Assembly: GCA_951812955.1 (NCBI GenBank)
Contig: OX638340.1
Span: 448,001-512,000 of the forward strand
DNA length: 64,000 nucleotides
Direction: 5' to 3'
Source: an uncultured Gemmatimonadota bacterium
GTDB taxonomy: Bacteria > JAAXHH01
Notes under the pieces: generated by a model
The model's database searches: none
Told to the model about the DNA's origin: nothing
The model's input: the letters and a program-made list of their open reading frames with translations, nothing else
Translations under genes and position numbers: made by a program
Shown: one piece after another, positions 2,353-63,050 of the stretch
Layout of the letters: each line of letters opens with the position of its first letter
How positions within the stretch are numbered: the first letter of the stretch is position 1

Positions 2353-2355
2353 GGG

Positions 2356-2443: not shown

Positions 2444-2466
2444 CATTCATTAAAAGGCCAACTGCA

Positions 2467-3453: not shown

Positions 3454-3518
3454 GGGTTAACCAGGGGACAGGCCGCGGTCCATGGACTGCCCGGCATGCG
3501 GTATGTGTGATCATCCCT

Positions 3519-5477: not shown

Positions 5478-5493
5478 TCGAATTTTTGGCCGG

Positions 5494-14437: not shown

Positions 14438-14648
14438 GGCGTACCTCTTTCTCCGAAGTCGAGTTGACGTTGAATGTAAACGGCTTAAACCGGGAGACAG
14501 GTTCAATCTACTGAGCCGTGGCGGTGATACAAGGGAAAGTAGGGAAAGTAAGCAGCGGCCGGTCCCTTAAGTCCTGTTTTCATTGTCACCGCCATTGACG
14601 GCTTTTATTTTGGGAGTTCACATCTTTTCCGCTTCATCCGGAGTTCCC

Positions 14649-16711: not shown

Positions 16712-17701
16712 ATGACCGTGATTGCTTCTACCGCGGCCAACGTGGATTCGGACGAGACCGTTCGCGCGCCCGTCGCCTTCCACCAACGCATGCTGAAAAA
16801 TCCCATGGTCTGCGCGGGTGGCGGCATGGTCCTTTTCCTGGTGGTCATGGCACTGGCCGCGCCGGTCCTAACCGGACTGGGTTTCCTCGAGGATCCCATG
16901 CGCCAACTCTCTGACGGGCTGGACGCCGACGGACTGCCCATCCCGCCAGGGGACCGGTTCCTGATCGGGACGGACCACCTGGGCCGGGATATGCTGGCCC
17001 GGTTGGTTCACGGCACCCGTATCTCCCTGTTCGTGGGTATCGTGGCCATGCTGATCGCAGTCTGCGTCGGAGTGACCGTGGGCATGCTCGCGGGGTACCA
17101 CGGCGGCTGGGTGAACACTGTGCTTATGCGCGGGACCGACGTGATGCTGACGATCCCGGGCCTGCTTCTGGCTATCGCCTTAGCGGGGCTGATGGACGGA
17201 CGGGTGATTCACCTGCATCCCGATGCGCTGGACTGGCACGGGCTGGACATTACGCTCAAACGCGGACTCGTCAGCGTGTTCCTCGTCATCGGCCTGATCA
17301 GTTGGACCTGGATCGCCCGGACCATAAGGGGACAGGTCCTGGTCCTGAAGACCCGGGAGTTCGTCGCTTCATCGCAGGCCATCGGCTGTTCGGACGTACG
17401 TATCATGTTCCGGCACCTGTTGCCGAACGTCATGCCCCTGGTCATTGTGCTCGGTTCCCTGGCTACGGCGAATACCGTCCTGCTCGATGCCGGGTTGAGC
17501 TACCTGGGCGTCGGCGTGCCGCCGCCCACACCGTCTTGGGGAACCATGATCGCGGAAGGGCAGCCCTACTTCATCGTTTCTCCGCACCTTACCATCGCAC
17601 CGGGTGTGTCCATTATCGTGGCCGTGGTGGGATTCAACCTGCTGGGACAGGGCCTGCAAGAGGTGCTGGATCCTTATGTGAAGGATGGACAGGGGAAGTG
17701 A
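16712..17701 (+). CDS. ABC transporter permease (DppC/OppC-like)
   Basis: 329 aa. BPD_transp_1 signature region (LISWTWIARTIRGQVLVLKTREFVASSQAIG) and the ...NLLGQGLQEVLDPYV C-terminus. Confidence 0.9.
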   Translation: MTVIASTAANVDSDETVRAPVAFHQRMLKNPMVCAGGGMVLFLVVMALAAPVLTGLGFLEDPMRQLSDGLDADGLPIPPGDRFLIGTDHLGRDMLARLVHGTRISLFVGIVAMLIAVCVGVTVGMLAGYHGGWVNTVLMRGTDVMLTIPGLLLAIALAGLMDGRVIHLHPDALDWHGLDITLKRGLVSVFLVIGLISWTWIARTIRGQVLVLKTREFVASSQAIGCSDVRIMFRHLLPNVMPLVIVLGSLATANTVLLDAGLSYLGVGVPPPTPSWGTMIAEGQPYFIVSPHLTIAPGVSIIVAVVGFNLLGQGLQEVLDPYVKDGQGK

Positions 17702-17709
17702 ACGGGATC

Positions 17710-19389
17710 ATGGTTGCCTGCGGATCTTACCTGCGTAAGCGTATATACCGGTGGCGTATATACAATGTGTCTACAAACCCTCGATGCGGGATCCTGGTTC
17801 CCCTCTGGCTCGCGATCCTCTTCTTATCCGCGTCCTGTGGAGGAGACGGCCGGCTCGAGCGGCTGCATCCCGAGGAGAACGTGCTGCGGATCGCCGTACC
17901 GTCGGATCCACGATCGCTCGATCCGGCCATCGCCTACGACGTGGTGACCTGGCCGCTCGTGCGCACCCTGTTTCACGGTCTGGTCGACTATGACGACGAC
18001 CTGAATCTGGTACCCTGGCATGCGCGATCATGGACGATCTCCGAGGATGGACGGACGATCACTTTCAAACTGCGACAGGACATACGATTCTCGAACGGCC
18101 GGCCGATAACTTCCGAAGATTTCGCCTATTCCCTCCAACGGATTCTGAATCCAGCCGTCAAGTCCCCCGGACAGGGATTCTATCGGAATATAGCCGGTGC
18201 AAGAGCGTTTCAGGACGGTTCGGCGGACCGGGTCTCCGGCCTGCGCACCCCCGATCTGGAGACCCTCGAGATCGAGCTGGTCCAACCCGATCTGCCTTTT
18301 CTCTACTGTATCGCCATGCCCTTTGCCTATGCCGTTCCCCGCGAAGAAGTGGAGCGGCACGGGGACGAGTTCGGCCGGTATCCCGTGGGATCCGGCCCCT
18401 TCACGCTGGCGCGGTGGCAACGGGGCACGGGACTGAGGCTGGAGAAGAACCCGGGCTACTACCGGGCGGACGATATCCGGCTTGAAGCCATCGATCTGAT
18501 GGTCGGAGGGGATGAAACCCTGCATATGATGATGTTCGAGCGCGGCGAGCTGGATATCGCGAGTGTCACGTCAACGGGTATTCCTGACGCGGACTTTATC
18601 CGGGTTATGAACGATCCCGTGCTCAGCAAGCGCGTCGCCCACCAGCCGTTGAACGCCATTCAGTACCTTTCGATGAACACCGAACTGCCGCCTTTCGACA
18701 ACGTAAACGTGCGCAGGGCGGTAAACCACGCCATCGACCGCAAGCGTATCGTAGGCCTGATCAGCGACCGGGGGATTCCCGCCCGGGGCGTGCTGCCGCC
18801 CGGCATGCCGGGATTCAACGAAGCGCTCACAGGATATGACCACGACCCGGAAAAGGCCAGGACACTGCTCGAGGAGGCCGGATTTTCGGAAGGATTTACC
18901 ACCGAGCTCATGGTCACGGCCCAGAGCGGTATTGATTCCAAGATCGGACAGGCGGTGCAGCAGGACCTTGCAGAGGTCGGTATAACCGTGGAGATCAGGC
19001 CGGTGACCGGTCCAACGCGAATCGAAGCGACGGGCCGGCGCGGCGCGGTGCCCTTCGCCACCTTCGGCTGGTACCAGGACTATCCTGACCCGAGCAACTT
19101 CCTCGACGTGCTGCTGAATGGCAACCGGATCACAGAGGTACACAGCACCAACGTGGCGTTCTATGACAATGAGCGGGTCAATGCTTTACTGAACGAAGCG
19201 TCCTCCAGTACCGATCAGGGCCATCGACTGGCCCTGTACCAGGAAGCGGAACGGCTGATCGTGGATGACGCACCCTGGGTGTTTCTGTACTACCCGCAGA
19301 TGTACCTGCTTCGTCAGCCGTGGCTGAAGGGACTGAAGCTCAATCCGGTCTGGCCCATCCGCTACGAACTGATGTGGGTCGAACCATGA
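17710..19389 (+). CDS. ABC transporter substrate-binding protein, family 5 lipoprotein
   Basis: Start at the ATG at 17710, just after the permease stop. Signal peptide plus lipobox-like ...LFLSASCGG. Family-5 SBP length. The longer track ORF (from 17302) is the overlapping alternative frame of the permease. Confidence 0.85.
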   Translation: MVACGSYLRKRIYRWRIYNVSTNPRCGILVPLWLAILFLSASCGGDGRLERLHPEENVLRIAVPSDPRSLDPAIAYDVVTWPLVRTLFHGLVDYDDDLNLVPWHARSWTISEDGRTITFKLRQDIRFSNGRPITSEDFAYSLQRILNPAVKSPGQGFYRNIAGARAFQDGSADRVSGLRTPDLETLEIELVQPDLPFLYCIAMPFAYAVPREEVERHGDEFGRYPVGSGPFTLARWQRGTGLRLEKNPGYYRADDIRLEAIDLMVGGDETLHMMMFERGELDIASVTSTGIPDADFIRVMNDPVLSKRVAHQPLNAIQYLSMNTELPPFDNVNVRRAVNHAIDRKRIVGLISDRGIPARGVLPPGMPGFNEALTGYDHDPEKARTLLEEAGFSEGFTTELMVTAQSGIDSKIGQAVQQDLAEVGITVEIRPVTGPTRIEATGRRGAVPFATFGWYQDYPDPSNFLDVLLNGNRITEVHSTNVAFYDNERVNALLNEASSSTDQGHRLALYQEAERLIVDDAPWVFLYYPQMYLLRQPWLKGLKLNPVWPIRYELMWVEP

Positions 19390-24803: not shown

Positions 24804-24945
24804 GTTGTTCGTTCCGCTCGGGCGGTAAATGATGGTTGATTTCAGCCGTGGTACCGCGTAATTTGCTATGGGCCTCGCGCCGCGAGTCCGGCGGCGAGCG
24901 TACCCCAAGATATAGGTATGCACTCAAAAAAAGCAAGGCGATCAA

Positions 24946-27036
24946 ATGGAAAGCAATCCACTGCTGAACTGGAACGACCTGCCCTCCTTCGACCAGATCG
25001 AAATCGGTCATATCGAACCGGGCATCCATGCGGTGCTTGAACGATGCGAACGGTCCGTAGTCCGTCTCGAGGAAACAGCGCCGTGCACCTGGCACGCGCT
25101 CATGGACCCGCTCGAGAAAATAGAAGACGACCTGGGACGCACATGGGGCATCGTGTCCCACCTCCACGGGGTGAAGAACTCACCTGAACTGCGGGAGGTC
25201 TACGACCCCCTGCTTGCTGAAGTGGTCAAGTTCAGCAACCGGCTCGGCCAAAGCGGACCCCTGTACCAGGCGTTCTGCGCCTTGCGGGACAGTGACGAAG
25301 CAAAGCAATTCGAACCCGCGCAGGAGCGTATACTGGCGTCGGCTATCCACGAAGCCGAGTTGAACGGCGTGGGGCTCGACGACGCGGGACGCGAACGCTA
25401 CAACGAGATCAGCGAACGGCTCGCGGAACTGAGCACGAAGTTTTCGAACAATGTCCTCGACGCCACCAAGGCCTACAGAATCACGCTGACAGAATCTGAA
25501 GAAGTCGACGGGCTTCCGGCTACCCTGCTCGAACTGGCAGCGGACACGGCCCGGCAGGAGGGACACGAACAGGCCACTTCGTCGGACGGTCCGTGGGTGC
25601 TCACGCTGGACTATCCCAGTTTCATGCCGTTCATGCAGCACAGCAAGCGACGGGACCTGCGGGAGCAAATGTACCGCGCCTTCGTTTCCAAGGCGTCGGA
25701 CGGACAGTGGGACAACCGGGATGTAGCCAGGGAGATCGTCGCCCTGAGGAACGACAAGTGCAGACTGCTCGGGTTTAATACCTTCGCGGAGTTGAGTCTC
25801 AGTCGGAAAATGGCGCCTGATGCGGGATCTGTGCGGGGCCTGCTCAACGAACTGAGCTCGGCGAGCCGCGGCGCCGCCAAACACGACATGGAGGCGCTCA
25901 AGGCGCTGGCAGGCGTCGAGAAAGACGGCGAACTGAGGCACTGGGACGTCCCCTACTGGTCGGAACGGCTTCGCGAGACGCGCTACGACCTGAAGGACGA
26001 AGAACTCAGACCCTATTTTCCGTTGCCCCGCGTGTTGAACGGATTGTTCGAACTCACGGAGCGGCTGTTCGAGGTGCGCCTGGAGGAGACGACCGGCGAA
26101 GCACCGGTATGGCATGAAGACGTACAGTACTTCCGGGTATACGACGATCGGAACGAACCCGTGGCGGGGTTCTACCTGGACCCGTACAGCCGTCCCGCGG
26201 AGAAGCAGGGCGGCGCGTGGATGGATACGCTGGTGGGCAGAAGCGCGGTCATGGCTTCCTCCGGACAGGCTGCCCGGCTGCCCGTGGCCTATATGATCTG
26301 CAACCAGGGTAAGCCCGTCGGCGGCAAACCCTCCCTCATGACGTTCCGGGAAGTGGAAACCCTTTTTCACGAGTTCGGCCACGCCCTCCAGCACATGTTG
26401 ACGAACATCGATTACGGCATGGCGTCCGGTATTTCCAACGTGGAATGGGACGCGGTGGAGATCGCCAGTCAGTTCATGGAAAACTGGTGTTACGACCGGG
26501 CGACGTTGAAAGGCCTGGCACGCCATTACGAGACGGACGAACCGCTGCCGGATGAAATCATCGATCGCCTGCTTGGCGCCAGGACGTTCCGGGAGGGCAG
26601 CAATACCCTCAGGCAGGTGAACTTCGGCCTGCTCGACATGGAGCTGCACGAAGGTTTCGATCCGGAGGGATCGGAGACCATCCTAGACGTGCAGCGCCGG
26701 ATCGATGCGCAGACGCTGATCCTGCCGTCGCTGGCGGAGGATCGGTTCTTCTGTTCGTTCTCCCACATTTTCGCGGGAGGTTACGCGGCAGGATACTATA
26801 GTTACAAGTGGTCGGAAGTGCTCAGTGCGGACGCCTTCTCCGCGTTCCAGGAAGCGGGTCTGGATAACGACGGGGAGATGCGTCGCCTGGGCCGCAGGTT
26901 CCGCGATACCATCCTCGCCCTCGGCGGCAGCCGGCATCCCATGGACGTCTTCAGAGATTTCCGCGGGCGGGAACCTACCACGGAAGCGCTGCTTCGCCAG
27001 GGCGGCCTTCTGGAGGCGGGCGGTGAAAGTCGCTGA
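24946..27036 (+). CDS. prlC: Oligopeptidase A (M3 family zinc metallopeptidase)
   Basis: 696 aa. HEFGHALQH zinc-binding motif. Length and overall architecture match PrlC/Dcp. Confidence 0.9.
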   Translation: MESNPLLNWNDLPSFDQIEIGHIEPGIHAVLERCERSVVRLEETAPCTWHALMDPLEKIEDDLGRTWGIVSHLHGVKNSPELREVYDPLLAEVVKFSNRLGQSGPLYQAFCALRDSDEAKQFEPAQERILASAIHEAELNGVGLDDAGRERYNEISERLAELSTKFSNNVLDATKAYRITLTESEEVDGLPATLLELAADTARQEGHEQATSSDGPWVLTLDYPSFMPFMQHSKRRDLREQMYRAFVSKASDGQWDNRDVAREIVALRNDKCRLLGFNTFAELSLSRKMAPDAGSVRGLLNELSSASRGAAKHDMEALKALAGVEKDGELRHWDVPYWSERLRETRYDLKDEELRPYFPLPRVLNGLFELTERLFEVRLEETTGEAPVWHEDVQYFRVYDDRNEPVAGFYLDPYSRPAEKQGGAWMDTLVGRSAVMASSGQAARLPVAYMICNQGKPVGGKPSLMTFREVETLFHEFGHALQHMLTNIDYGMASGISNVEWDAVEIASQFMENWCYDRATLKGLARHYETDEPLPDEIIDRLLGARTFREGSNTLRQVNFGLLDMELHEGFDPEGSETILDVQRRIDAQTLILPSLAEDRFFCSFSHIFAGGYAAGYYSYKWSEVLSADAFSAFQEAGLDNDGEMRRLGRRFRDTILALGGSRHPMDVFRDFRGREPTTEALLRQGGLLEAGGESR

Positions 27037-29048: not shown

Positions 29049-29876
29049 ATGACACCCCTTTCACTCGGGTACTCTCCCTGTCCGAACGATACGTTCATCT
29101 TCTGTGCCTTGACCCAGGGCAGGATTCCCGATGCGCCTCCTTGCCGTGAGGTATTGGAAGATATCGAGTCCCTGAATACCCTCGCTCTTGAGCGGAAACT
29201 GGACCTGACGAAAATTTCCTTTCACGCCCTGGCCCACCTCAGGGACCATTACGTCCTGCTCCGGTCCGGTGGGGCGCTGGGCCGGGGATGCGGCCCCCTG
29301 GTGGTTTCGAGAGAACCGTTGTCGCCGGAACGGTTGAAGGGAAAGAAAATCGCGCTGCCCGGACGCCTGACCACGGCGGCACTGCTAATGAGGCTTTTCG
29401 ATCCTGCCCTGGATCGACTGGTCTACCTTCCATTCGACGAGATCATGCCGGCCTGCGAACGCGGTGACGTCGACGCCGGGGTGATCATCCACGAAAGCCG
29501 GTTTACTTTCGCAGCATACGGCCTCTCGCAAGTGATCGACCTCGGAGCCTGGTGGGAGGAAGAGACCGGTCACCCGATACCCCTGGGAGGGATTCTCGCG
29601 CGGAGGGACCTGGGACGTTCGATGCACGAACGGCTCGACCGGTCGATACGATCGAGCATCGAATTCGCCTATGCCCATCCCTGTGAAGTCAGGCCCTATA
29701 TCAGGCGCTACGCCCAGGAAATGGATGAAACGGTCATGCAGCAACACATCGATCTCTACGTGAATGAGTACTCCCTGCAGTATGGAGAGGACGGGGAAGC
29801 TGCTATTCACGACCTGTACGCACGCGCCGAGGAAGCCGGTATCGTGCCTGCGTCGGGTCATTCACTGTACGAGTGA
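29049..29876 (+). CDS. mqnD: 1,4-dihydroxy-6-naphthoate synthase (MqnD)
   Basis: The N-terminus LSLGYSPCPNDTFIFCAL is the characteristic MqnD (PF02621) start. 275 aa. Confidence 0.8.
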   Translation: MTPLSLGYSPCPNDTFIFCALTQGRIPDAPPCREVLEDIESLNTLALERKLDLTKISFHALAHLRDHYVLLRSGGALGRGCGPLVVSREPLSPERLKGKKIALPGRLTTAALLMRLFDPALDRLVYLPFDEIMPACERGDVDAGVIIHESRFTFAAYGLSQVIDLGAWWEEETGHPIPLGGILARRDLGRSMHERLDRSIRSSIEFAYAHPCEVRPYIRRYAQEMDETVMQQHIDLYVNEYSLQYGEDGEAAIHDLYARAEEAGIVPASGHSLYE

Positions 29877-29953
29877 CGGCGCTTGCGCCAAGGGAAACCC
29901 GAGACGGTAATCCAGGTCTTGCGGGTGATCCGATATTATCGAAAGGAAGCAAC

Positions 29954-30766
29954 ATGCGAATACTGATCATGACGGACATGGAAGGGGTCAGCGGCATCGT
30001 GGCCTGGGACCAGGTAAACGGCGGCAAGCCCATGTACGAGGAGGGCAGGCGGCTGTATACAGAGGAGATCAACGCCGCCGTTCGGGGCGCACGGGCTGCG
30101 GGGGCAACGGAGATCGTGGTGGTCGACTGTCACGGCGCCGGGGGAGACTGGACCTTCAATTCGCTGGTGCCCGAGTTACTCGATCCCGGATGTGAATGGG
30201 TCGCGAAGCATCCCTGGTCGCGTTACACGGAGATGTTTGAAACGGGATGCGACGCCGCGCTTTTCGTCGGCATGCACGCCCGGGCGAACACCCCCGACGG
30301 CGTGATGTGTCACACGATCTCCACCACGGGCTGGCGCAGTTTGCATTTCAATGACGACGAGGTGGGTGAAGTCGGTATCAACGCCGCCCTGTGCGGTCAC
30401 TACGGGGTTCCCGTGCTGCTGGTCACCGGCGACGAGGCCGTTTGCCGGGAATCCCGGGAACTCCTGGGCGAGAATCTGCCGGTCGTGGCCGTGAAACGGG
30501 GTCTTTCAAGGTACTCGGCCAGGCAGATTCCCCCGGTGCGGGCTCGACAGATGATCGAGGACGGAACGCGGCAGGCGCTTCAGGACATGCCGAATATCAA
30601 TCCATACGTCCCAACGGCGCCCACGAAGATCACCATCGAATTGGACACCGTGGACAACGCATCACATCACAGGGGCAGGCAAGGAGTGTCGTTTCCCGAC
30701 CCCCTGACCGTCGTCAGCGAGGGCCGGGACTGGATGGAAGCCTGGAATCAGATCTGGGGCTGGTAG
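29954..30766 (+). CDS. Peptidase M55 family D-aminopeptidase (DppA-like)
   Basis: Start at MRILIMTDMEGVSGI (AAGGAAG upstream), the hallmark M55 N-terminus. Confidence 0.8.
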   Translation: MRILIMTDMEGVSGIVAWDQVNGGKPMYEEGRRLYTEEINAAVRGARAAGATEIVVVDCHGAGGDWTFNSLVPELLDPGCEWVAKHPWSRYTEMFETGCDAALFVGMHARANTPDGVMCHTISTTGWRSLHFNDDEVGEVGINAALCGHYGVPVLLVTGDEAVCRESRELLGENLPVVAVKRGLSRYSARQIPPVRARQMIEDGTRQALQDMPNINPYVPTAPTKITIELDTVDNASHHRGRQGVSFPDPLTVVSEGRDWMEAWNQIWGW

Positions 30767-31784: not shown

Positions 31785-33770
31785 TCAATACGATTCCCAT
31801 CGATGGGGTTGGTCCGGGAACCAGGCCAGGTCGACCCCCATGGCGACAAGTTGCCAGAACAGATAAGCGAGCAGGACGCCAATAAACATCCGTCGGACCT
31901 TCTGGTAAAGTGCCGGACCTCCAATGCGGAATACGATGGTCTGGACCAGCCACGCCAGGAAAATCGGCAAAAACGCGCTTCGCACCGGGGCGGACATGAC
32001 GACCACCATGCCTATGGGATGGAGCGGCCACCACGGCAGGAGAATCCTTCCGGCCAGGAGCACGAACATCATTACAACGCCGCTCCCGAAAAACAGTACT
32101 TCGAGTTCATTGATCCGGGTCGCGTTGTTGACCCAGGTCACGATCAGATCGTAAAACTGGTTGCCCCGCGAGGTGCCCAGGTCGGTCCGCAGGCTCTGGG
32201 CACCGTAAGTGTTTCCGGCGTAGATCAGATATCCGATGGAAGCCGTGGCACTCAGGCAGAACGCCGCGGCCACGCTGGCGAAGAGGTGCTTTGCGGAGGG
32301 CTGCCGGCGGGAAACTCCATTCTCTGTTTTGTTAATGTACTGTGCCTGCATGCGCTGCCGCCACTGTGATTTGAGCCAGGCCACGTGGGATGTGCCAATC
32401 ATGGTGAAGGTGCGCCAGTTGCGCGCGAACCCGTTGGCCATGCCCAGTGTCGTCAAATCGCCGTGGCTGATCTGGGACGAACCGACGATGGCGATGGAGA
32501 ACTGGTGGCTGTTGATGGGCAGATCGAGCGTCACCACGCCCGTTTCGGCCACCACGCGCGCCATGGCGATATAGAAGATGAAGAGGAGCGTGATGAACAG
32601 GGCCATGATCGGCAGGGACAGACCGGCGGCGTACAGCCAGCACACGATGAAGGACATGCCAAGCAGGAATCCGAAGACGGCGGTCCGATAGGAGAACAGC
32701 TCTTCGGCGTCATCCAGCCGGCTGTTTCGGCCCAGCGCGTGCCGCCAGACTTCTTTCAGATGCCTACGGGCCATCCAGAGACCGAAGAGGACGAAGGTCA
32801 CCAGCCCGGCGATCGACTGGATACCTGCCAGGCCCCCGTGGATGATGGTTCCGGAGGTGGAACCGATGCCGACCATGTTGAGCGTACCCTCCTGGAGCAC
32901 GTAAAAGACCAGGAAGAACCACATGCTGAACAGGACGTCCCGGTTTACGAAGATCAGCAGGCAGAAGACGAAAACGTTCATCTGAAAGTTGAGCCCGGGA
33001 AAAGCGGGATCGAGGGTAAGAACCTGGGAATTCTCCGCCATGATTGGGAACGGGGGCCACGCACCCCAGAATGAGATGATGTTACAGATCATGAAAAGCG
33101 ACATGACCACCGCACCGGACAGGGTCCAGCGGCTGATGCCGTCTGACTTTCCTTCGCCCAGTGAGATCAGGTGCAGGCCCACTTCTCCCAGGGGAAACTG
33201 GAGGCGTTCGTGTTCGACCCACTGTTTCCTGAGCATTACTACAATGCACGCGCCGACAAAAAGCAGGACTAGAATGAAGGAACCCCACCAGAACAGAGGG
33301 GACAGCCAGGCGCCCCAGGGGATGGACTGGCCGGACTGAAGTCCTTCGTAGAACACCCTTACCGCTGCCCGGTCACTGAGGACCAGCCATTCTGGCAGAT
33401 AAGGAAAGAAGATGGATTCCCAGGCATTTTCCGGTGAAGCGAAGTAGAACGGCGCGGTGATCACGACGAGCAGGTACTTGGTCATGGCCTGGTCGGGCAC
33501 CGTGGAGGCGATCCAGCCCATGGCGAAGATGACGATCATTTCATAGAAAGAAAGGGCCCAGGCGGGACGTATCCGACCGATTAAAACGTTGGGCAGCAGT
33601 ACGCAGAACAGGAACGGGACGAGGAACACCGGTGGGAGATGGGTCGCTGCCGGTTCGATTCCGATCTGGTTGGCGGCGTATTCTCCCGTGAAACCGATGA
33701 ATATCGAAAGCGCGGCCCCGATGAGGACCGCGCGGAAGGATCGGATATACTGAAGTATAATCGTTGTCAT
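31785..33770 (-). CDS. Large polytopic membrane protein of an unrecognised family (paralog of 60949..62931)
   Basis: 661 aa with at least 14 hydrophobic segments. It shares FYFASPENAWE, LRKQWVEHERLQFPL, FGLWMARRH, ELFSYRTAV, RVVAETG, LDLPINS, TRNWRT, WPLHPIG and LYQKVRRMFIGVLLAYL with the second copy. Confidence 0.8.
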   Translation of the reverse strand: MTTIILQYIRSFRAVLIGAALSIFIGFTGEYAANQIGIEPAATHLPPVFLVPFLFCVLLPNVLIGRIRPAWALSFYEMIVIFAMGWIASTVPDQAMTKYLLVVITAPFYFASPENAWESIFFPYLPEWLVLSDRAAVRVFYEGLQSGQSIPWGAWLSPLFWWGSFILVLLFVGACIVVMLRKQWVEHERLQFPLGEVGLHLISLGEGKSDGISRWTLSGAVVMSLFMICNIISFWGAWPPFPIMAENSQVLTLDPAFPGLNFQMNVFVFCLLIFVNRDVLFSMWFFLVFYVLQEGTLNMVGIGSTSGTIIHGGLAGIQSIAGLVTFVLFGLWMARRHLKEVWRHALGRNSRLDDAEELFSYRTAVFGFLLGMSFIVCWLYAAGLSLPIMALFITLLFIFYIAMARVVAETGVVTLDLPINSHQFSIAIVGSSQISHGDLTTLGMANGFARNWRTFTMIGTSHVAWLKSQWRQRMQAQYINKTENGVSRRQPSAKHLFASVAAAFCLSATASIGYLIYAGNTYGAQSLRTDLGTSRGNQFYDLIVTWVNNATRINELEVLFFGSGVVMMFVLLAGRILLPWWPLHPIGMVVVMSAPVRSAFLPIFLAWLVQTIVFRIGGPALYQKVRRMFIGVLLAYLFWQLVAMGVDLAWFPDQPHRWESY

Positions 33771-33889
33771 TGGACGGCTAAGGGAACCGGATCATGTCCA
33801 TAGTACCTGGGCTGCGCGATCAGGACCACGCGGTCAGGTCCACGTGGTCAGATCCACACGGTCAATCGCAATCGGTCAGTTGCAGACAA

Positions 33890-37413: not shown

Positions 37414-38748
37414 TCACTTCATCTGCTCCAGCCTGGTCCGGTACTTGTCATACAGGTCGGTGTGCTTGCTGCTGATATCGACCGGCCGGCCCTGGATGAA
37501 GGCCCGTTCCACCTGGGTCATGATCTCGAGGGGGTCCCCGTCGGTCACGATCAGGGTGGCGTCCTTGCCCGTCTCCAGGGAACCGAGCCTGTCTTCCACC
37601 CCGAGGATACGCGCCGGATAGAGGGTGACGGATTTCAACGCCTCTTCCCTGGGCAGGCCGTAGGCCGCCGCGGTCGCGGCGTGGTAGGGCAGGTTCCGTA
37701 CGTTCGAACCGCCGCCGCCTTCGAGCCATACCCTGCGCTCGCCGATGCAGAAATCCAGGCCGGCTTCATAGAGTTTCAGGGCATTGGTGAACGGCGCGTC
37801 ATAGGCTTCCCAACGGCGAGCGGGCAGGTAATGCACGGCGCCGATGATCACAGGGATCGCGTTTTCCTTCAAGCGGTCCGCCACCCGCCATACGTCCGCC
37901 CCGCCGACCAGGACGATCTTGAGATCTTCGGCGAGGGCCCAGTCGATGGCGGCGTGGATCTGTTTTACTTCAGATGCGTGTACGAGAACGGGAAGTTCTT
38001 TCTTAAGCACCGGGATCATCGACTCCCAGCCGAGGTCGGAGGGATGAAACGGCCCGCCGGTGCGTTCGGCCTCCTTGGCGATCATGTATGCCCTGGCTTC
38101 GCGAAAGGCGTCGCGAAGTCTGGTAAGGGCTTCCCTGCGCGCTTCGACCTGCTTCTCCCGGCTGTCCGCACCGGGAAAATCGAATATGCGGTAGGATGGC
38201 CAGCGTACGTGAAGTCCCACCGTCGATTGCAGCGTCATTTCCTCAGTGGTCCAGCCATCCAGCGCGATAAGGCCGGAAAGCCCAGAGATCAGGCCGCCAC
38301 TGGGCATGGTCAGGGCGGTCAGTATCCCGTTCGCACGGGCAACAGGGAAGTACTCGCTGTCGGGATTCACGGCGGTAACCGCGCGGACGCTCGGGGTAAC
38401 GTCCCCGATTTCCACGTTGTCCTGGGTCGCCCGCACCGAGCTGATCTCGGTCAGTCCCAGGGTCGTCGGCGCGGCGATCAGCCCGGGATACACATGTTTC
38501 CCCGTAACGTCGATGACCAGCGTGTTTTCGGGCAGGGCCAGATCGGTCCCGATACCTGTTATAACGCCGGCATCAAAGAGCACCGTGGCGCCTTCGAGGA
38601 CAGCGCCGCTCACCGTATGCACGGTTCCGCCAGTCAGGGCGATGGGACGAGCCTGCGGCCCGGACGGTTTCTGCTTGGAAGCAGCCGCCTCGTGGACCAT
38701 GGGACCGGATGCGAGACCAGCAATCAACAATACAGCCATCGTTCGCAT
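37414..38748 (-). CDS. Amidohydrolase family protein (secreted metal-dependent hydrolase)
   Basis: Amidohydrolase fold motifs (GKHVYPGLIAAPTTLGL; the C-terminal D-loop region GKDATLIVTDGDPLE). The true start is uncertain because the 5' end holds a 36-bp tandem triplication with three in-frame ATGs (38748, 38784, 38820). The track ORF extends to 38892. Confidence 0.75.
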   Translation of the reverse strand: MRTMAVLLIAGLASGPMVHEAAASKQKPSGPQARPIALTGGTVHTVSGAVLEGATVLFDAGVITGIGTDLALPENTLVIDVTGKHVYPGLIAAPTTLGLTEISSVRATQDNVEIGDVTPSVRAVTAVNPDSEYFPVARANGILTALTMPSGGLISGLSGLIALDGWTTEEMTLQSTVGLHVRWPSYRIFDFPGADSREKQVEARREALTRLRDAFREARAYMIAKEAERTGGPFHPSDLGWESMIPVLKKELPVLVHASEVKQIHAAIDWALAEDLKIVLVGGADVWRVADRLKENAIPVIIGAVHYLPARRWEAYDAPFTNALKLYEAGLDFCIGERRVWLEGGGGSNVRNLPYHAATAAAYGLPREEALKSVTLYPARILGVEDRLGSLETGKDATLIVTDGDPLEIMTQVERAFIQGRPVDISSKHTDLYDKYRTRLEQMK

Positions 38749-38838
38749 CCAACAAGCGCCTGCGAGTACAGCCATTGTCCGCCTCCAACAAGCGCCTGCG
38801 AGTACAGCCATCGTTCGATTCCAACAGGCGCTGGAAGA
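38731..38838. repeat. 36-bp tandem triplication within the 5' coding end of the amidohydrolase gene
   Basis: Three 36-nt units (tacagccatcgttcgcatccaacaagcgcctgcgag and two near-identical copies). They encode RTMAVLAGACW(R/M) three times, each with an in-frame ATG. Confidence 0.8.
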
Positions 38839-38900
38839 CTTCGCCGAACGCCGCGTCCCCTGGATTGTCCGGGGCAATATCACCATCTCCAACCTCCATT

Positions 38901-38940
38901 CGCCGGGAAACCGGCCTGTCCGCCGGGAAACCGGCCTGTC
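38901..38940. repeat. Perfect 20-nt tandem duplication, each copy forming a 5-bp stem with a GAAA/UUUC tetraloop, between two amidohydrolase genes
   Basis: cgccgggaaaccggcctgtc appears twice. GCCGG-GAAA-CCGGC is a perfect hairpin. It lies immediately downstream of the stop at 38946. Confidence 0.7.
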
Positions 38941-38945
38941 CGGTC

Positions 38946-41936
38946 CTACGCCTCCGGCGACGCTTCCCCGGTCTCGGACGAACCTTCGTCCGCATCGGGC
39001 GACTTGAGCAGTTTCTGAATCAGTCTCGTTCTTTCTTCTTCCACTTCTTTCCTCATCTGCCTGTCTTCATCGATATCGAAGTATCTTCTTCCGTCGATCC
39101 AGGTCTGTTCGCATTTCGTATACGTGGACAGGGGATGGCCGTTCCAGATCACAAAATCGGCGTCCTTGCCCGGCTCGAGCGATCCGACCCAGGGATCGAT
39201 GGCCAGTTGCTTCGCCGCGTTGAGCGTGACGAACTTCAGGGCTTCTACCTCGTCGACCCCGCCGTATTTCACCGCCTTTGCCGCCTCGGTGTTCAGTCGC
39301 CGGGCGAGTTCATCGCTGTCGGAGTTGAAGGTGACCAGTACGCCCGCGTCGTGCATCAAGGCCCCGTTGTAGGGAATGGCGTCGTAGGCTTCCACCTTGA
39401 ACGCCCACCAGTCGCTGAAGGCAGAAGCACCCGCGCCGTGGGCGGCCAGTTCGGGTGCGACCTTGTACCCCTCCAGCACGTGTTGAAAGGTGCCGATCGT
39501 AAAACCGAAATCTTCGGCCACCCGAAGGAGCATCAGGATCTCGTCCTGCCGATAGGAATGACAGTGGACGAGACGTTCGCCGGCCAGGATCTCCTGCAGT
39601 GTTTCCAGTTCGAGGTCGCGCCGGGGAGGGACGACGCCGGATTTATCTTCCAGAGCGTTGTACCGGTCCCACGACTGTTGATATTCCCGGGCCGCGCGGA
39701 AACGGTCGCGGATGATCTGTTCGACCCCCATGCGGGTCTGTGGATAGCGGTCGCTGAGAATGCGCCAGTTGCTGCGCTTGACGTTCTCGCCCAGGGCGAA
39801 CTTGATCCCCGCCTTGGCTTCGGAGAATTTGAGTTCCTCGGGGCCTGTACCCCATCTCAGCTTGATGACCTGGTTCTTGCCGCCAATCGGATTGGCCGAC
39901 CCGTGCAATACATTGGCCACGGTGAGACCGCCGGCCAGCTCTCGGTACATGGCGATATCGTAGCTGTCGATGACGTCTCCGATACCCACCTCGGCGGTCA
40001 CGGCCTGCGTGCCCTCGTTGATGCCCTCCATGATGGCCGTGTGCGAATGGGCGTCGATGATGCCGGGCGTGACGTGCTTGCCGGTACCGTCGATTTCTAC
40101 GGCATCCTCTGGCGCTTCGAGGTTCGTACCCACCTCGTCGATTTTCCCCGCGCGGATCAGCACGTCCGCGTTTTCCAGTTTGCCCCGCTCGTCCAGCGTC
40201 CACACCGTGGCGTTCCGCACGACGAAGTATTCCGGCTGCGCTGGCGCGCTTTCTCTACCGAAGGCTCCGGGTGGATACAGCGCCGGCGGTTCGTCTGCCG
40301 CGGCGGACTTCGGAATCTCCAGCGTTACCGCTTCATGCTCCGCGATGCGTTCCGCTGACCAGCTCACGCTTTCGCCGCCGGGGCGGACCCCCCGGCCCGA
40401 GATCCGGTCTCCCTGGACAGAACCCGAAAAACGCCAAACACCGGCTTCACCCAGCGCTTCATGCTCAATGCTGAATGCGATTCGGGTATCGTCCAGGTCC
40501 ATGCGGACCGTCTTGATCGTGGTACCGTCTTTGTCGATGGTGCCCTTCGGCGAACCCGCCGATCCTTCAATGGCCAGCGACAGGCTGTCTCCCTGCAGGA
40601 CGATCAGCCACGTCCCCCGTGGATCGACTACCGGGCGTGGGGTGACCACGTGACGGTTACCCGCGACCCACACATCCTGCACGCGCACGCCCTCAGCGAA
40701 CAGGGGGCCGTCGGTAATCGTCATGTTGGCCAGTTTCCCGGACTCCAGCGTACCGAGCTGGCGGCTAATGCCAAGCATGGATGCAGGGGTCGTAGTCAAC
40801 GAGGCCAGCGCGGCTTCATAATCCAGCCCGTGCTCGATCGCTTCCCGCACCCTTTCGTGAAAGTCGGCGCTTTTACCCAGCCTTGTACTGCTCAGCGCAA
40901 TGGGGATCCCGGCCCGGTGCAATTGGCCCGGATTCCCGGGCGCCAGGTCCCAGTGCCGCAGTTCTTCCAACGTGACGTCCACGGCGTCTTCCGGCGTGGA
41001 TACGGAGAGATCTTCCGACCGTGGAAAATCGAGCGGCAGGATGACCGGCGCGCCCACTTCGCGCACCGCGTCCAGCATGCGGTATTCATGGCCGCTGCCC
41101 CGGACGAGGAATCGAAGTCCGAATTCATCCGCCAGACTGGCGGCACGCAGAAAGGCGTGGTCGTCATCGACACTCATGAGAACGGCCTGGCCGCGGGCGA
41201 TCACCCCGTCCAGCGCCGCCAGCGCGTCATTGTCCTCCGGGCGTTCCTGCTGGGGATTCTCTGCGAAAGCCGCATGGGCGTCCCGGTACCATTGCGCGTC
41301 CAGGATCGTCTGCCGTATGAGGGCCGCGACGCCCATCATGGAGGCCGGATAGGTGCGGTTCCGGTTTCTCTTCATGCGCAGATGCTGGAACACATCGCGC
41401 TTCAGTATGTTCTCGTTGGGCGATCCGGAACCCAGGTTCACCACCGCGCTGCTGCCAGAGAAAACTCCCCGATCGGCTACGACCATGGCCGCCGCGAAAC
41501 CGGATTTACGCAGCCGGGCGAGTTCCTGCTCACTGACGCGGTATGCTTCGCCGGCGGCGCGTTCAGGACGGACACCGGGATTCCAGTGGGTCGATCCCGT
41601 GGACTTCTCCGCTTCCTCTTCCGGCAGGCCGGCCTGTGTGAACATCTCGATCAATCCGGGATAAATGGTCTTGCCGGAATAGTCCCACCGCTGGGCGTCC
41701 GGTGGAATGTCGACGGACGCTCCGGCTTCCACGATCAGCCCGTCCCGGACGATCACGACGCCCCTGTTGATCACGAGATCGGGCCGGACGTAAATCCGGG
41801 CGTCCTCCAGGGCGTGGACGCGTGAAGGATTCTCCCGCAGTCCCGTCTGCGGCGCCGTCTGCTGGGCTTCCGCGGCAAGGGTGACCGCCCCGGACAGCAG
41901 CATGGCCTGGATCATGATCCAACAGGTTTTCAGCAT
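38946..41936 (-). CDS. Large two-domain amidohydrolase family protein with signal peptide
   Basis: Start at MLKTCWIMIQAMLLSGAVTLAAEA (ATG at 41936, with a perfect AGGAGG 6 nt upstream). Two amidohydrolase modules (GKTIYPGLIEMFTQAGL...; ...GIIDAHSHTAIMEG...). About 996 aa. Confidence 0.85.
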   Translation of the reverse strand: MLKTCWIMIQAMLLSGAVTLAAEAQQTAPQTGLRENPSRVHALEDARIYVRPDLVINRGVVIVRDGLIVEAGASVDIPPDAQRWDYSGKTIYPGLIEMFTQAGLPEEEAEKSTGSTHWNPGVRPERAAGEAYRVSEQELARLRKSGFAAAMVVADRGVFSGSSAVVNLGSGSPNENILKRDVFQHLRMKRNRNRTYPASMMGVAALIRQTILDAQWYRDAHAAFAENPQQERPEDNDALAALDGVIARGQAVLMSVDDDHAFLRAASLADEFGLRFLVRGSGHEYRMLDAVREVGAPVILPLDFPRSEDLSVSTPEDAVDVTLEELRHWDLAPGNPGQLHRAGIPIALSSTRLGKSADFHERVREAIEHGLDYEAALASLTTTPASMLGISRQLGTLESGKLANMTITDGPLFAEGVRVQDVWVAGNRHVVTPRPVVDPRGTWLIVLQGDSLSLAIEGSAGSPKGTIDKDGTTIKTVRMDLDDTRIAFSIEHEALGEAGVWRFSGSVQGDRISGRGVRPGGESVSWSAERIAEHEAVTLEIPKSAAADEPPALYPPGAFGRESAPAQPEYFVVRNATVWTLDERGKLENADVLIRAGKIDEVGTNLEAPEDAVEIDGTGKHVTPGIIDAHSHTAIMEGINEGTQAVTAEVGIGDVIDSYDIAMYRELAGGLTVANVLHGSANPIGGKNQVIKLRWGTGPEELKFSEAKAGIKFALGENVKRSNWRILSDRYPQTRMGVEQIIRDRFRAAREYQQSWDRYNALEDKSGVVPPRRDLELETLQEILAGERLVHCHSYRQDEILMLLRVAEDFGFTIGTFQHVLEGYKVAPELAAHGAGASAFSDWWAFKVEAYDAIPYNGALMHDAGVLVTFNSDSDELARRLNTEAAKAVKYGGVDEVEALKFVTLNAAKQLAIDPWVGSLEPGKDADFVIWNGHPLSTYTKCEQTWIDGRRYFDIDEDRQMRKEVEEERTRLIQKLLKSPDADEGSSETGEASPEA

Positions 41937-42008
41937 GATTCTCCTCCTGCAGAAAAGATTCAGATACTGATTAAAACCCAAAGCAGCACAATAACTTACT
42001 AACATTCA

Positions 42009-42548
42009 CTACATTAATTGTTCAATGACTTTGTCCAGTGCCTGGTCGATCTGGGCAGCGAGTGCTTTCCCGTCCAACCGGCCGATGGGATGATCGATCT
42101 CGACGATGGGATAGCCACCGTTTCCCAGTTGTTCGGCCATCACCCGTGCGGTGTGTGTGAAGTTGGACGTACAAAGCAGTGCGGCCGGTAGTCCAAGGTG
42201 CTCGAGCATGAGGACATCGTGCATGCTGCACGCGCTGCAGGACCCTCAGTCTCCGACTCCCACGAGTGCGAAATTGCAGCGCCTTACGATAAGATCGGTC
42301 ATCTCTTCTGACAGCACGCGACTTGCGCTTTCCTTGGTGTATTCAACCGAATCCACAGGATGGGCCAGGCGAATCGTTAACTGCTCGAAGAGGCCGCGCA
42401 GGATCACGTCGGAATTGGGCTTGCCGTTTCCCACCAGCGCGGCTGTGACATGCTGAACACCCAGGGGCCGCAGCGCCATGCGAAGGGTCGATGTGTCGGC
42501 CGAGGCCGTGGGATCAACGAGGGTTACCGACATTTTCACACGCTCCAT
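42009..42548 (-). CDS. UGSC-family selenoprotein, with the in-frame UGA at 42246..42248 read as selenocysteine
   Basis: Track ORFs 42246..42548 and 42009..42224 are in the same frame, separated only by TGA plus 7 codons. The minus strand reads ...GTC GGA GAC TGA GGG TCC TGC AGC..., which is VGD-U-GSC-SACS-MHDVLML..., and U-G-S-C is the eponymous family motif. There is hairpin potential just downstream of the UGA. The likely start is the second ATG (MSVTLV..., GGAG upstream). Confidence 0.7.
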
Positions 42549-42583
42549 GTTTCCGCGGAAGGCGGGTATTCAGTACGTTCCGT

Positions 42584-43603
42584 TCATTGCCTGGTGGTGC
42601 AGGTTGAGATCCAGCGCGTAACCGGCCGCGACCCTACGCCTCTGCCCGAACCCAGCCACGGCGGAATGATGGCGGAATGTCCGCCGGCCGATCCTCCAGC
42701 GAACATGATCCATATGCCATCCCGGTCCGGCGTCAGCGTGACGGGTTCTTCGGGACCCAGGTCGTCGTGCCTGCCCGTTGCCTGGATTTCACGTCCCGTG
42801 GCCGCCGTGCGTTCAAAAAGCGCTTCACGGATCATTTCACGAGTCCACCCGGCCCGGCTGAATACCGATCGGTGTTCCGGGCAGATGATGAATACGATGG
42901 CTGCGCCGGCGTAGTTGGTCGTCCGGGCGACGCGCGCAAACGAGTCGATCAGGCCATCGGGCTGGTCGTTAACGTGGTCGGCTACGGAGTGGGGTGCTTC
43001 GGCGGCAAGGACCGTGACGGCGTTTTTGTCCGGGGAAACGCCCAGTTCTTCGCCCTGGGTCGGCCATCCGGCGCAACGGGCTTCCGGCAGACAGTACGCA
43101 ATGCGTCCGGCATGGGCTATCGTCGCCCGGTCCAGGTCACCCGGCACACTGCCGACACCGTTTCGTATGACCAGGTTCAAGGCACGCCCCAGCGTCAGAT
43201 TGGACCGGTTGCCCGCACCGAGCACGGCCGTTTCCGGATTGAAACGCAACGACTCCACAACGGGACCGTGGACGATCGCCAGGGGGGCGGCGCCGCCAGT
43301 GCTGGCCGACGGTCCGACGATATTGAACGCCGGGTCCAGGATGGCCTCGACCGTGGCAAGGACGACAGGGAACAGCGAATCAGTGCATCCCGCCATAACC
43401 GCGTTCGCCGCCACCAGTTCGGCTGAGATGGATCTGTTCCGCTCAGGCACCGTGCCGATTTCACGGTCCGGTTCGATGCCGTGCGCATCGAGCATCCGAT
43501 CAATGCGATCGCGGACGGGCGGCACCACGGGAAGGCCATCCGACCAGCCCCGGTCGAAGGCGTATTCTATGGCATCAATTTCGGATTCGACCTGGTGGGC
43601 CAT
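42584..43603 (-). CDS. Hypothetical protein (unrecognised family) between the cytochrome c and the selenoprotein gene
   Basis: About 340 aa from the ATG at 43603 (the track ORF extends to 43702 but overlaps the upstream gene). No motif recognised. It starts 8 nt after the cytochrome c stop. Confidence 0.55.
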   Translation of the reverse strand: MAHQVESEIDAIEYAFDRGWSDGLPVVPPVRDRIDRMLDAHGIEPDREIGTVPERNRSISAELVAANAVMAGCTDSLFPVVLATVEAILDPAFNIVGPSASTGGAAPLAIVHGPVVESLRFNPETAVLGAGNRSNLTLGRALNLVIRNGVGSVPGDLDRATIAHAGRIAYCLPEARCAGWPTQGEELGVSPDKNAVTVLAAEAPHSVADHVNDQPDGLIDSFARVARTTNYAGAAIVFIICPEHRSVFSRAGWTREMIREALFERTAATGREIQATGRHDDLGPEEPVTLTPDRDGIWIMFAGGSAGGHSAIIPPWLGSGRGVGSRPVTRWISTCTTRQ

Positions 43604-43611
43604 TAGCAGCG

Positions 43612-44004
43612 TTACCTGCCGTAGTAGTTTTCCAGATAGGTAAGAATGGTTTCTTCGGTTTTCGAATCGAATTTCTTCAATCCCTTTTCCGCCTGCATCC
43701 AACGGATAGCATCAAGCCACTCCGCGCGGTTCGCCCGATAGGAACGGATGATCTGGGTAGGATGGCATTGGGCGCATTCCCTTTCCACGACGGGGTAGCC
43801 GTCGCCCATGATCAGCCGGGTCCGGTGGTTCAGTTCCAGGCCCGTTCGCGGGTCGAACATCGTTACGGGCTTGGCCGCCTCGGCCCTGGCATTGGCCTGT
43901 GCGACTTTCGATCGCTCCGCTTCGTAGTAGATCAGACCGACTACCAGGACATCCAGGATGATGACGAAGGCAAACTGGCCAAGTACGCGCAGAAACGAAT
44001 TCAT
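43612..44004 (-). CDS. Putative membrane-anchored mono-heme c-type cytochrome
   Basis: 130 aa. N-terminal TM helix (FAFVIILDVLVVGLIYY) and a single CAQCH heme-binding motif. AGGAG 7 nt upstream of the ATG. Confidence 0.6.
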   Translation of the reverse strand: MNSFLRVLGQFAFVIILDVLVVGLIYYEAERSKVAQANARAEAAKPVTMFDPRTGLELNHRTRLIMGDGYPVVERECAQCHPTQIIRSYRANRAEWLDAIRWMQAEKGLKKFDSKTEETILTYLENYYGR

Positions 44005-60948: not shown

Positions 60949-62931
60949 CTACCAGCCGTCCACGATATGGCCCGCGCCCGGAAACCAGGCCGCGTCCACC
61001 AGAAAGGTCAGAAAGACGCCGAGGACATAGCCCGCGAGAATGCCAATAAACAGGGGTTGTGCCTTGCGGTACAGCGATACGCCGCCGAGACGCAGGATCA
61101 CCGTCTTGATCAGCCAGACGATCAGAATGGAAAAGAAAGCCATGTCGGCCGCGTAGGTGGTCACGATCCCGAATCCCACGGGATGGAGGGGCCAGAAATG
61201 CAGCCGGTGATGGGCCCAGATCAGGAATCCCGAGATCAAAATCCCGTTCAACACCATGGTCAGCTGAGGTTGTGTCATGGCCTGAGGATTGGTCAGGAAG
61301 GTCTCCAACTGGGCCCAGTATCCGCTCGCGCCGGACTGAAAACCGCCGGCCTGGAGCTGGGACGCGCCCATGTCATACCCCAGGTACAGCGTGTACACGA
61401 TGGCCGTCATGAATCCGATGAAGAGTGAAAGGGCAATGGCGCCGAAAACGCCCCGGCCCACGCCGCCCATGACGTCCCCCACCTTGGCGGCGTGCGCCAT
61501 CGAACACATCCCGAGCGTCCGCCAGTTGCGCGTAAAGGTCTGGCAGAGCCACATCCCCGTGATCGTGCGGGCATTGATGTGCTCCGACCCGACGAACCGG
61601 AACGTGATCTCGTTGGCGCTGTTGTACGGCAGGTCCAGGGACGCCAGGCCGGTCTCGGCCACTACGCGGGTCACGCCGATGTACAGAACCAGCAGCACGA
61701 ACATCATGAGCATCACGACCCAGAGCGTCATGCCCGCGCTCCACAGGAGGAAAACCATGTAAAGCGAACCGCCGGCGAAAGATAGGACGGCCGTGCGATA
61801 GGAAAAGAACTCCCGTGTATCATCGATTTCCGGCGCTTTGCCGAATGCCTTCCGAAACACGTCACGGATATGCCTGCGTGCCATCCACAGACCGAACAGC
61901 ACGAAAATGAAAAAGCCGGACAGATGTTGAAAGTGCATCATCTCGAGAGGACCGGGGACGCCGACCCGCGTCATCACGCCCTGTTGAACGATGCGGATGA
62001 GATAGAACAACCAGACGCTGAGCAGCACCTCCACCCTCGTGAAGTACGCCACCCCGATCAGCAGGAAATTCAGGCGGACCTGGATCGGGTGGAAGGCTTC
62101 ATACAGGGTCAGGGGAAAGGCGTGCCCCGCGCCGAAAGGGATGGCGGGGAACAGATCGAAGAAGCTGAACATATTCCAGGTCATGATAAACAGCGTGATG
62201 CCGAACCCCCACCAGAACAGGCGCACGCGGGCAATCCTCGGGAACAGGGCCGTTTCTTCGGCCCCGTCGACCAGCGTCAATGGCACCTGGGCTAGCGGGA
62301 AGGTCAGCCGTTCGTGTTCCACCCACTGCTTCCGCAGGATGACCATGATAGACGCGCCGACCAGGAAGAGGGCGATGTAGAATGTTATCCACCAGAACAT
62401 GGGCACCCACCAGATTTGCCATCGGATGGTTGTTCCCGAATACACGCCTTCATAGAATTGGTTCAGACCGCCCAGGTTGTCCCGCACGACCAGCCAGGAA
62501 GGAAGGTAGTCGAGGAAAAGTTCCGCCCAGCGGTTTTCGGGGTTGGCGTAGTAGAAAGGACCGCTGATGATCGAGACCGCGTAATTGCTGAAGGCCCATC
62601 CGGGGATGGCGGACGCCGTGAAGACCAGGAAGAAGATCACGATCAGCTCCTGCCGGCTGAATGGACGGCCGTAACCCGCCTTTTTCAATACCGGGTTGAC
62701 CAGGAGTACCATCAGCAGGAAGGGCAGCAGCGCGGCGACGGGCAGGTGGGTGACCGTGATGAAGGATCCGCGCGTGACGAATTCGGAGGAGAGCGACCAG
62801 AGCGTCAGTAGGACGGTGAAGACGCATCCTATGGCCACGGCCCGTAGGGTAAGGCCGGCGGAAACGGGTTGCTTTACAGGCGGAGGCACGGTGGCCTGTC
62901 GGCCGGTCTGGGGCGATGAGACAGTGGGCAT
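60949..62931 (-). CDS. Large polytopic membrane protein of an unrecognised family (paralog of 31785..33770)
   Basis: 660 aa with many TM helices. It shares FYYANPENRWAE, LRKQWVEHERLTFPL, FGLWMARRH, EFFSYRTAV, RVVAETG, LDLPYNS, TRNWRT and WPLHPVG with the first copy. Confidence 0.8.
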   Translation of the reverse strand: MPTVSSPQTGRQATVPPPVKQPVSAGLTLRAVAIGCVFTVLLTLWSLSSEFVTRGSFITVTHLPVAALLPFLLMVLLVNPVLKKAGYGRPFSRQELIVIFFLVFTASAIPGWAFSNYAVSIISGPFYYANPENRWAELFLDYLPSWLVVRDNLGGLNQFYEGVYSGTTIRWQIWWVPMFWWITFYIALFLVGASIMVILRKQWVEHERLTFPLAQVPLTLVDGAEETALFPRIARVRLFWWGFGITLFIMTWNMFSFFDLFPAIPFGAGHAFPLTLYEAFHPIQVRLNFLLIGVAYFTRVEVLLSVWLFYLIRIVQQGVMTRVGVPGPLEMMHFQHLSGFFIFVLFGLWMARRHIRDVFRKAFGKAPEIDDTREFFSYRTAVLSFAGGSLYMVFLLWSAGMTLWVVMLMMFVLLVLYIGVTRVVAETGLASLDLPYNSANEITFRFVGSEHINARTITGMWLCQTFTRNWRTLGMCSMAHAAKVGDVMGGVGRGVFGAIALSLFIGFMTAIVYTLYLGYDMGASQLQAGGFQSGASGYWAQLETFLTNPQAMTQPQLTMVLNGILISGFLIWAHHRLHFWPLHPVGFGIVTTYAADMAFFSILIVWLIKTVILRLGGVSLYRKAQPLFIGILAGYVLGVFLTFLVDAAWFPGAGHIVDGW

Positions 62932-63050
62932 GATGTCAGTGGATTCCAGGAGAGGAGGGGGCTGGACTGCGTCCTACGTTACGCGTCAACTCTAGGCGTA
63001 CGTAAATCAACTGTACTATGTGTTCCCGGGCAGCTCAAGGACATAGGGAA

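Follow-up and report, generated by a model that had tools for sequence, protein, structure and literature searches.

The window analyzed here is a 64-kb stretch of contig OX638340.1 from an uncultured Gemmatimonadota bacterium. Between positions 42533 and 42009, its minus strand very probably carries a single gene encoding a 174-amino-acid (aa) member of the UGSC-containing selenoprotein family, which is interrupted by an in-frame UGA codon (positions 42248 to 42246). Read-through of this UGA by the ribosome is strongly supported, and the codon most likely encodes selenocysteine (Sec). There is likewise strong support for the encoded residue being the first of a U-G-S-C (UxxC) pair, which takes the form C-G-S-C in Cys-type homologs.

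The gene is a rediscovery of a predicted family that has been known since 2007-2008 (Zhang & Gladyshev) and is already described and curated. An earlier study reported the UGSC-containing protein from Hyphomonas neptunium and from marine metagenomes, as a selenoprotein whose function was unknown (PMC1976440). UGSC was among the most abundant selenoprotein families in the Global Ocean Sampling (GOS) data, with 255 Sec and 21 Cys sequences and a UxxC motif, and is so in aquatic metagenomes in general (PMC2398784). The same study described fusions of UGSC to a domain named Unknown_1 (PMC2398784). A 2026 review still lists the function of UGSC as uncharacterised (PMC13188914), and members carry the NCBI name "UGSC family (seleno)protein."

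The original prediction rested on two open reading frames (ORFs) of 100 aa (42548..42246) and 71 aa (42224..42009), said to share one frame and to be separated by TGA plus seven codons, and this arrangement was confirmed. The minus strand reads GTC GGA GAC TGA GGG TCC TGC AGC GCG TGC AGC ATG CAC GAT, which translates across the TGA as V-G-D-U-G-S-C-S-A-C-S-M-H-D, and the D-U-G-S-C motif claimed for this site is therefore present. The predicted Sec codon (42246..42248, minus strand), the U of D-U-G-S-C, aligns with the first Cys of the family motif GxGDCGSC. It is the sole interruption of a 174-codon frame that ends with a TAG stop codon at 42011-42009. The read-through product had been put at 179 aa; this was corrected to 174 aa, as the likely start is ATG 42533, equivalent to Met6 of the 100-aa ORF. 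Homologs begin at MxVxLVDPT, which corresponds to this ATG, and a Shine-Dalgarno-like GGAG (42543..42546, minus strand) is found 9 nucleotides (nt) upstream of it.

Membership in the UGSC family, as originally proposed, was borne out by profile searches with the read-through product (U replaced by C). It matched the Pfam UGSC family (PF24696) with 143.7 bits against a gathering score of 25, with protein residues 10-178 aligned to profile positions 2-170 of 172, and its top match by far among NCBIfam models was NF041046 (UGSC_fam; 9.2e-35, 119.8 bits). Each half alone matched the corresponding half of NF041046. The two halves are thus parts of one UGSC domain rather than unrelated pieces, and as both fit one contiguous Pfam domain, their shared frame is not a matter of chance. 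Six Cys-type homologs (approximately 35% identity) do not end at the UGA site but continue through it, with VGVGD-C-GSCSA in place of VGVGD-U-GSCSA in the window protein. In an exhaustive profile search, 2,880 cluster representatives reached E<=0.001; most of the 150 best-scoring ones have GxGDCGSC. Compared with known members such as H. neptunium ABI76733.1, the window protein has the same full-length domain and the same position of U-G-S-C; the alternation of Sec and Cys and the aquatic uncultured hosts are also alike, and there is no essential difference.

Evidence that the UGA is decoded came from its conservation together with that of the neighboring gene, which encodes a 339-aa protein. 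The TGA and the surrounding synteny are kept in six near-identical contigs of up to 3.9 Mb from independent metagenome assemblies, and the TGA is conserved throughout loci L001-L008. Assemblies with the locus include ERZ21861969 (ctg21612c, 3.9 Mb) and ERZ18545484 (ptg000768l), and OZ253560.1 is related to them. A wider survey of cassettes used one genome per GTDB species and an alignment of the 339-aa protein as the query, and was therefore blind to whether the UGSC gene was of the Sec or Cys type. It gave at least 598 matches, and in 73 of the best 80 loci a UGSC gene adjoins the 339-aa gene; the motif codon is TGA in 72 of these 73. The carriers belong to Chloroflexota, Methylomirabilota, Acidobacteriota, Actinomycetota, and Alpha-, Beta-, Gamma- and Deltaproteobacteria. 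Comparison with the 82%-related locus L007 gave ratios of nonsynonymous to synonymous substitution rates (dN/dS) of 0.205 over the 95 codons that precede the TGA and 0.213 over the 79 that follow it. The two parts of the gene are under equal purifying selection.

These data bear directly on whether the locus is instead a Cys-type UGSC gene broken by a nonsense mutation or a sequencing error. A TGA is one base from TGC or TGT, and single-read sequencing errors were considered not excludable in earlier work (PMC1976440). However, the six independently assembled close relatives have an identical TGA, as do 72 of 73 cassettes from various phyla, the frame is free of other disruptions, and dN/dS remains at approximately 0.2 downstream of the TGA. 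A pseudogene or an error is thus effectively refuted, and its probability is negligible.

It is also very unlikely that the locus is a split gene, in which translation stops at the UGA to give an N-terminal fragment of 95 aa, translation of a separate 71-aa C-terminal polypeptide begins at ATG 42224, and the pieces may reassemble. All public calls divide the locus into just such 95-aa and 71-aa products, and in the window lineage an ATG does lie seven codons past the TGA. However, there is no Shine-Dalgarno sequence before ATG 42224; the bases there belong to the hairpin described below. In other lineages, the equivalent codon is CTG, ACG, ATA, TTG or GTG, and where it is CTG, ACG or ATA the C-terminal part cannot start by itself. 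As the start codon varies and the invariant G-S-C of the family motif is encoded by the seven codons preceding it, the idea that the C-terminal part is initiated independently is not tenable. According to the structural model discussed below, the break would also sever the strand/helix junction of the putative active site.

The window UGSC gene also contains a predicted SECIS (selenocysteine insertion sequence)-like hairpin (42214..42235, minus strand), a stem-loop at the distance from the UGA that is expected of a SECIS in a bacterial selenoprotein gene. Its core stem pairs 42232-42228 with 42222-42218 (CGUGC/GCACG) around the loop AGCAU (42227-42223). A possible 3-bp extension (G42233-U42216, C42234-G42215, and G42235-U42214, with A42217 bulged) was read from the sequence and matches the local minimum free energy (MFE) fold, while the core was derived from comparative pairing. 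The stem begins 13 nt after the UGA and the apical loop 18 nt after it; the latter value is within the range of 16-37 nt used for the loop distance by bSECISearch. Where the window has GTC (Val), sister strains have GCC (Ala), and this difference turns a G-C pair of the extension into G-U in the window.

Comparison of 77 distinct Sec-type sequences in a gap-free alignment strongly supports the prediction that this hairpin is conserved and covaries across Sec-type members only. The Sec-form consensus is (C)GUCGUGC-AGUGU-GCACGAC(G), and the inner five pairs can form in 76-77 of the 77 sequences. Pair 22/32 is U-A in 69 sequences, G-U in 6, A-U in 1, and U-G in 1; pair 24/30 is C-G in 74, G-C in 2, and U-A in 1; and pair 21/33 is G-C in 55, G-U in 20, and A-U in 1. 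Changes on both sides of a pair were found in five of the eight hairpin pairs, a count that 3 of 500 shuffles reached, and the covariation score was reached in none of 500. The same stem was independently selected by RNAalifold. In the loop, the G at position 2 is invariant, and at least 90% of the Sec-type sequences have U at position 3. In three Cys-type genes, a small sample, the core stem is broken in this register.

Two other hairpins had been suggested after the UGA, and neither held up. The first (CUGCA-N5-UGCAG) is paired in 87.5% of cells with one both-sided pair change, and it overlaps and competes with the better-supported stem; the second (GCAUG...CAUGC) is lineage specific and not conserved. 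Like bacterial SECIS elements of the Escherichia coli fdhF type and the bSECISearch model, the UGSC element is a stem-loop located within the coding sequence shortly after the UGA, and its consensus loop (AGUGU) also carries an invariant G followed by U. In contrast, it is short (5-8 bp) and has no Rfam family, and the window loop has C for U after the conserved G.

Several points weigh against the proposed Sec-encoding gene. None of selA, selB, selD, or tRNA-Sec was found in the 64-kb window, which was searched with ARAGORN, Rfam, the Pfam labels of the genes called in syntenic contigs for approximately 36-57 kb, and Pfam on 20 further ORFs. The window hairpin is weaker than the consensus, with the loop AGCAU in place of AGUGU and an uninterrupted stem of 5-6 bp, and Rfam reported no SECIS family either in the whole window at gathering thresholds or in 41950-42650 at E<=10. 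Folding of the 70 nt that follow the UGA gives an MFE structure no better than those of shuffled sequences (z = 0.06); as the single-sequence fold is unremarkable, the structure was drawn from comparative data. The hairpin lies inside conserved coding sequence, and its conservation is therefore partly at the protein level, while the shuffle control ignores phylogeny. The NF041046 score of 119.8 bits is 5 bits under the equivalog cut-off of 125, which is passed by 8 of 10 other Sec-type cassette proteins (up to 156.6 bits). Finally, no member of the UGSC family has been characterised experimentally (PMC13188914), and we infer both that UGSC has a redox role and that it works with the 339-aa protein, as discussed below.

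The lack of Sec machinery within the 64-kb window would suit a UGA that is read as another amino acid, either Trp or Gly by an altered code or Cys or Trp by near-cognate suppression. We consider this highly improbable. TGA ends more genes in the window than any other stop codon (22 of 37) and also terminates the partner gene in many lineages, and the genetic code is therefore standard. Homologs carry Cys at the UGA site, never Trp or Gly, and the codon is followed by a predicted hairpin that is specific to the Sec form. Furthermore, a tRNA-SeC gene is found 140-900 nt beyond the Sec-type UGSC gene in two Dehalococcoidia loci from metagenome-assembled genomes, L016 (7425-7522, minus strand) and L036 (6712-6810, minus strand). 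The genes that follow it encode a class-V aminotransferase (NifS/selenocysteine-lyase-like) and an arginase-family protein; neither selA nor selB is among them. The proposal of a selenoprotein with a recoded UGA is thus supported indirectly, by the conserved TGA, selection on both sides of it, the covarying hairpin, the frequent use of TGA as an ordinary stop in the window, and tRNA-Sec beside two carrier cassettes. Other coding frames interrupted by TGA were sought in the window and no convincing candidate emerged, a weak negative, as the filter also missed the UGSC TGA itself.

The partner gene (F339; 42584..43603, minus strand) ends 50 nt upstream of the UGSC start. The upstream neighbor had been described as an unknown protein fused to a c-type cytochrome; this description was not upheld, as separate genes of 130 aa (43612-44004) and 339 aa (42584-43603) are called in syntenic contigs. 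A 372-aa ORF at this position is an upstream over-extension, with the ORF prolonged to the first TTG. More than 640 homologs of the 339-aa protein were found, and the family has no Pfam or NCBIfam match; profile searches against PDB sequences returned nothing for either the UGSC or the 339-aa family. Invariant motifs of the 339-aa family are GWSDGLPVVPP, NAVMAGC (containing Cys73), TSTGG, and a C-terminal AGG..FS..IPGW.

The 339-aa gene is an almost obligate neighbor or fusion partner of UGSC. In the 73 of 80 loci mentioned above, UGSC is directly downstream on the same strand, and all five Cys-type loci examined starting from UGSC have a 339-family gene next door, often with overlapping stop and start codons. 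Fusion proteins with UGSC at the N terminus and the 339-aa domain at the C terminus account for 8 of 150 UGSC representatives. The 339-aa protein is most likely the Unknown_1 domain of the GOS study (PMC2398784). Across the 80 loci, no third conserved neighbor recurs; the commonest is a short-chain dehydrogenase-like family, present in nine loci. The 339-aa protein was also considered as a selenoprotein itself and rejected, as all of its TGAs are terminal stops.

Variants of the cassette were seen in several genomes. Two homologs of the 339-aa protein (P0107 and P0111; approximately 483 aa) have an N-terminal AhpC/TSA-like (peroxiredoxin-fold) extension, and a third (P0125) probably shares it, judging by its length and near-identical C terminus; this extension hints further at thiol redox chemistry. 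Actinobacterial Cys-type clusters contain a third small gene of 72-86 aa (L087 9652-9882, L091 7714-7974, and L093 7744-7962) with the motif C-x-[DE]-C-L-[VA]-P and a weak likeness to NifU. In P0188, this small domain (residues 1-110) is fused N-terminally to UGSC and the 339-aa domain, and no such small gene was found beside the cassette in the window. In the sister contig L005, gene calling gives a single 425-aa product (13330-14607) that combines the 339-aa gene with the N-terminal part of UGSC; this locus is approximately 79 nt shorter than those of other strains, either through a natural in-frame fusion or through an assembly error. Two Sec-type UGSC genes of different subtypes are present in L018 (283-1884 and 4974-6544), L021, L072, and L073, with the motifs A-x-A-D-U and G/A-I/V-G-D-U, and L018, L021, and L072 have a second copy of the 339-aa gene as well; the genes may stand in either order.

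The fold of UGSC was approached through an AlphaFold2 (AF2) model of a Cys homolog (P0003), built from a 58-row alignment in place of the window protein. The model has a predicted local distance difference test (pLDDT) score of 90.1 and five beta-alpha units, with the motif Cys located where strand 3 ends and helix 3 begins. UGSC is accordingly modeled as a probable Rossmann/flavodoxin-like alpha/beta domain. The published suggestion that UGSC is thioredoxin-like is not borne out by this model, in which a thioredoxin fold was not recognized. UGSC shares with the thioredoxin-fold UxxC/CxxU selenoproteins (Trx-like, Prx-like, and SelW-like) a redox-type U-x-x-C pair at a helix N terminus, and thiol/selenol-disulfide exchange is the presumed reaction in common.

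Weak matches to models of selenoprotein B of the glycine, sarcosine, betaine, and D-proline reductases (GrdB, GrdF, GrdH, and PrdB; TIGR01917, TIGR01918, and TIGR04483) were detected in 8 of 11 Sec-type UGSC proteins, including that of the window. E values range from 1e-4 to 0.1; the best match of the window protein scores 16.4 bits and that of L025 scores 21.4 bits. The register of these matches is constant and spans the Sec, with UGSC residues at approximately 75-155 aligned to approximately 327-405 of GrdB or to 138-183 of PrdB. This would fit the Sec positions of GrdB and PrdB, near 350 and 151, respectively. The TIGR01918 subfamily cut-off of 65 bits is not reached, and the likeness is local, around the Sec; none of 60 Cys-type UGSC members matched Pfam GRDB. 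Possible kinship with GrdB/PrdB is treated as a lead from these profile comparisons rather than as established homology.

UGSC and selenoprotein B both have a UxxC motif, and both act or seem to act with a second subunit encoded next door. In contrast to selenoprotein B, UGSC is much shorter and does not contain the rest of GrdB, and its scores are far under the cut-offs (65-600). Furthermore, its partner is neither GrdE nor PrdA, with no similarity to a pyruvoyl proenzyme detected, and its hosts come mostly from lineages of aerobic heterotrophs, not from Stickland fermenters. No grd or prd genes, including grdA, grdC, and grdD, were found in the window or in the loci examined.

In the mechanism that we propose, SelB bound to Sec-tRNASec would recognize the hairpin as a SECIS and insert Sec at the UGA, as in established bacterial Sec decoding. 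By analogy with the model of the Cys homolog, the Sec would be located at the end of strand 3 and the N terminus of helix 3, where motif and model suggest that it probably alternates between a selenol/thiol state and a selenenylsulfide formed with the Cys three positions further along. Gene linkage and fusions suggest that UGSC may pair with the 339-aa protein and supply the small redox subunit of the pair; the invariant Cys of NAVMAGC in the 339-aa protein is a candidate partner thiol. Tentatively, and with clearly less confidence than the gene assignment, UGSC and the 339-aa protein could together form a widespread, uncharacterised selenoenzyme of two subunits. Its Sec domain would be distantly related to selenoprotein B of glycine/D-proline reductases and would use Sec-x-x-Cys when an imported small molecule is broken down, at a step that is reductive or depends on thiols; the 339-aa subunit would represent a new fold and family, and a NifU-like CxxC protein would be a third component in some Cys-type clusters.

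Reading of the raw sequence thus recognised a selenoprotein gene that automatic gene callers still cut in two. Handles on UGSC function are provided by the partner gene, for which there is no described family or solved fold, and by the family-specific SECIS consensus, while the fold assignment and the weak GrdB/PrdB link lead away from the thioredoxin-like fold suggested in the literature. There is a moderate chance that the partner gene, the SECIS consensus, and the fold will lead to something new. As UGSC is abundant in aquatic metagenomes (PMC2398784), the function of the pair would explain a sizeable share of microbial selenium demand.

The genomic surroundings of the cassette in the window are catabolic, with genes for a TonB-dependent receptor, a pyrroloquinoline quinone (PQQ) dehydrogenase, and amidohydrolases. 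In actinobacterial loci, the cassette is accompanied by genes for an Opp-type ATP-binding cassette (ABC) transporter, short-chain dehydrogenases/reductases, a zinc-dependent alcohol dehydrogenase, an aldehyde dehydrogenase, and Amidohydro_2 proteins. The window is rich in peptide uptake and breakdown genes (1279-5561, 16915-19389, 24916-27036, 29768-30766, and 37414-42005), which encode Opp-type permeases, two family-5 solute-binding proteins, an M3 oligopeptidase, an M55 D-aminopeptidase, and two large amidohydrolases. Opp-type transporters flank actinobacterial Cys-type UGSC clusters as well.

Directly upstream of the 339-aa gene, the gene at 43612-44004 (minus strand) encodes a 130-aa protein with an N-terminal hydrophobic helix, a single CAQCH haem-c motif, and a weak SorB-like match (E 0.004). 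It is conserved in the closest relatives only and is therefore probably outside the cassette. Elsewhere in the window, the genes at 31785-33791 and 60949-62973 (both minus strand) encode paralogous large proteins with DUF6785 and DUF6784 domains.
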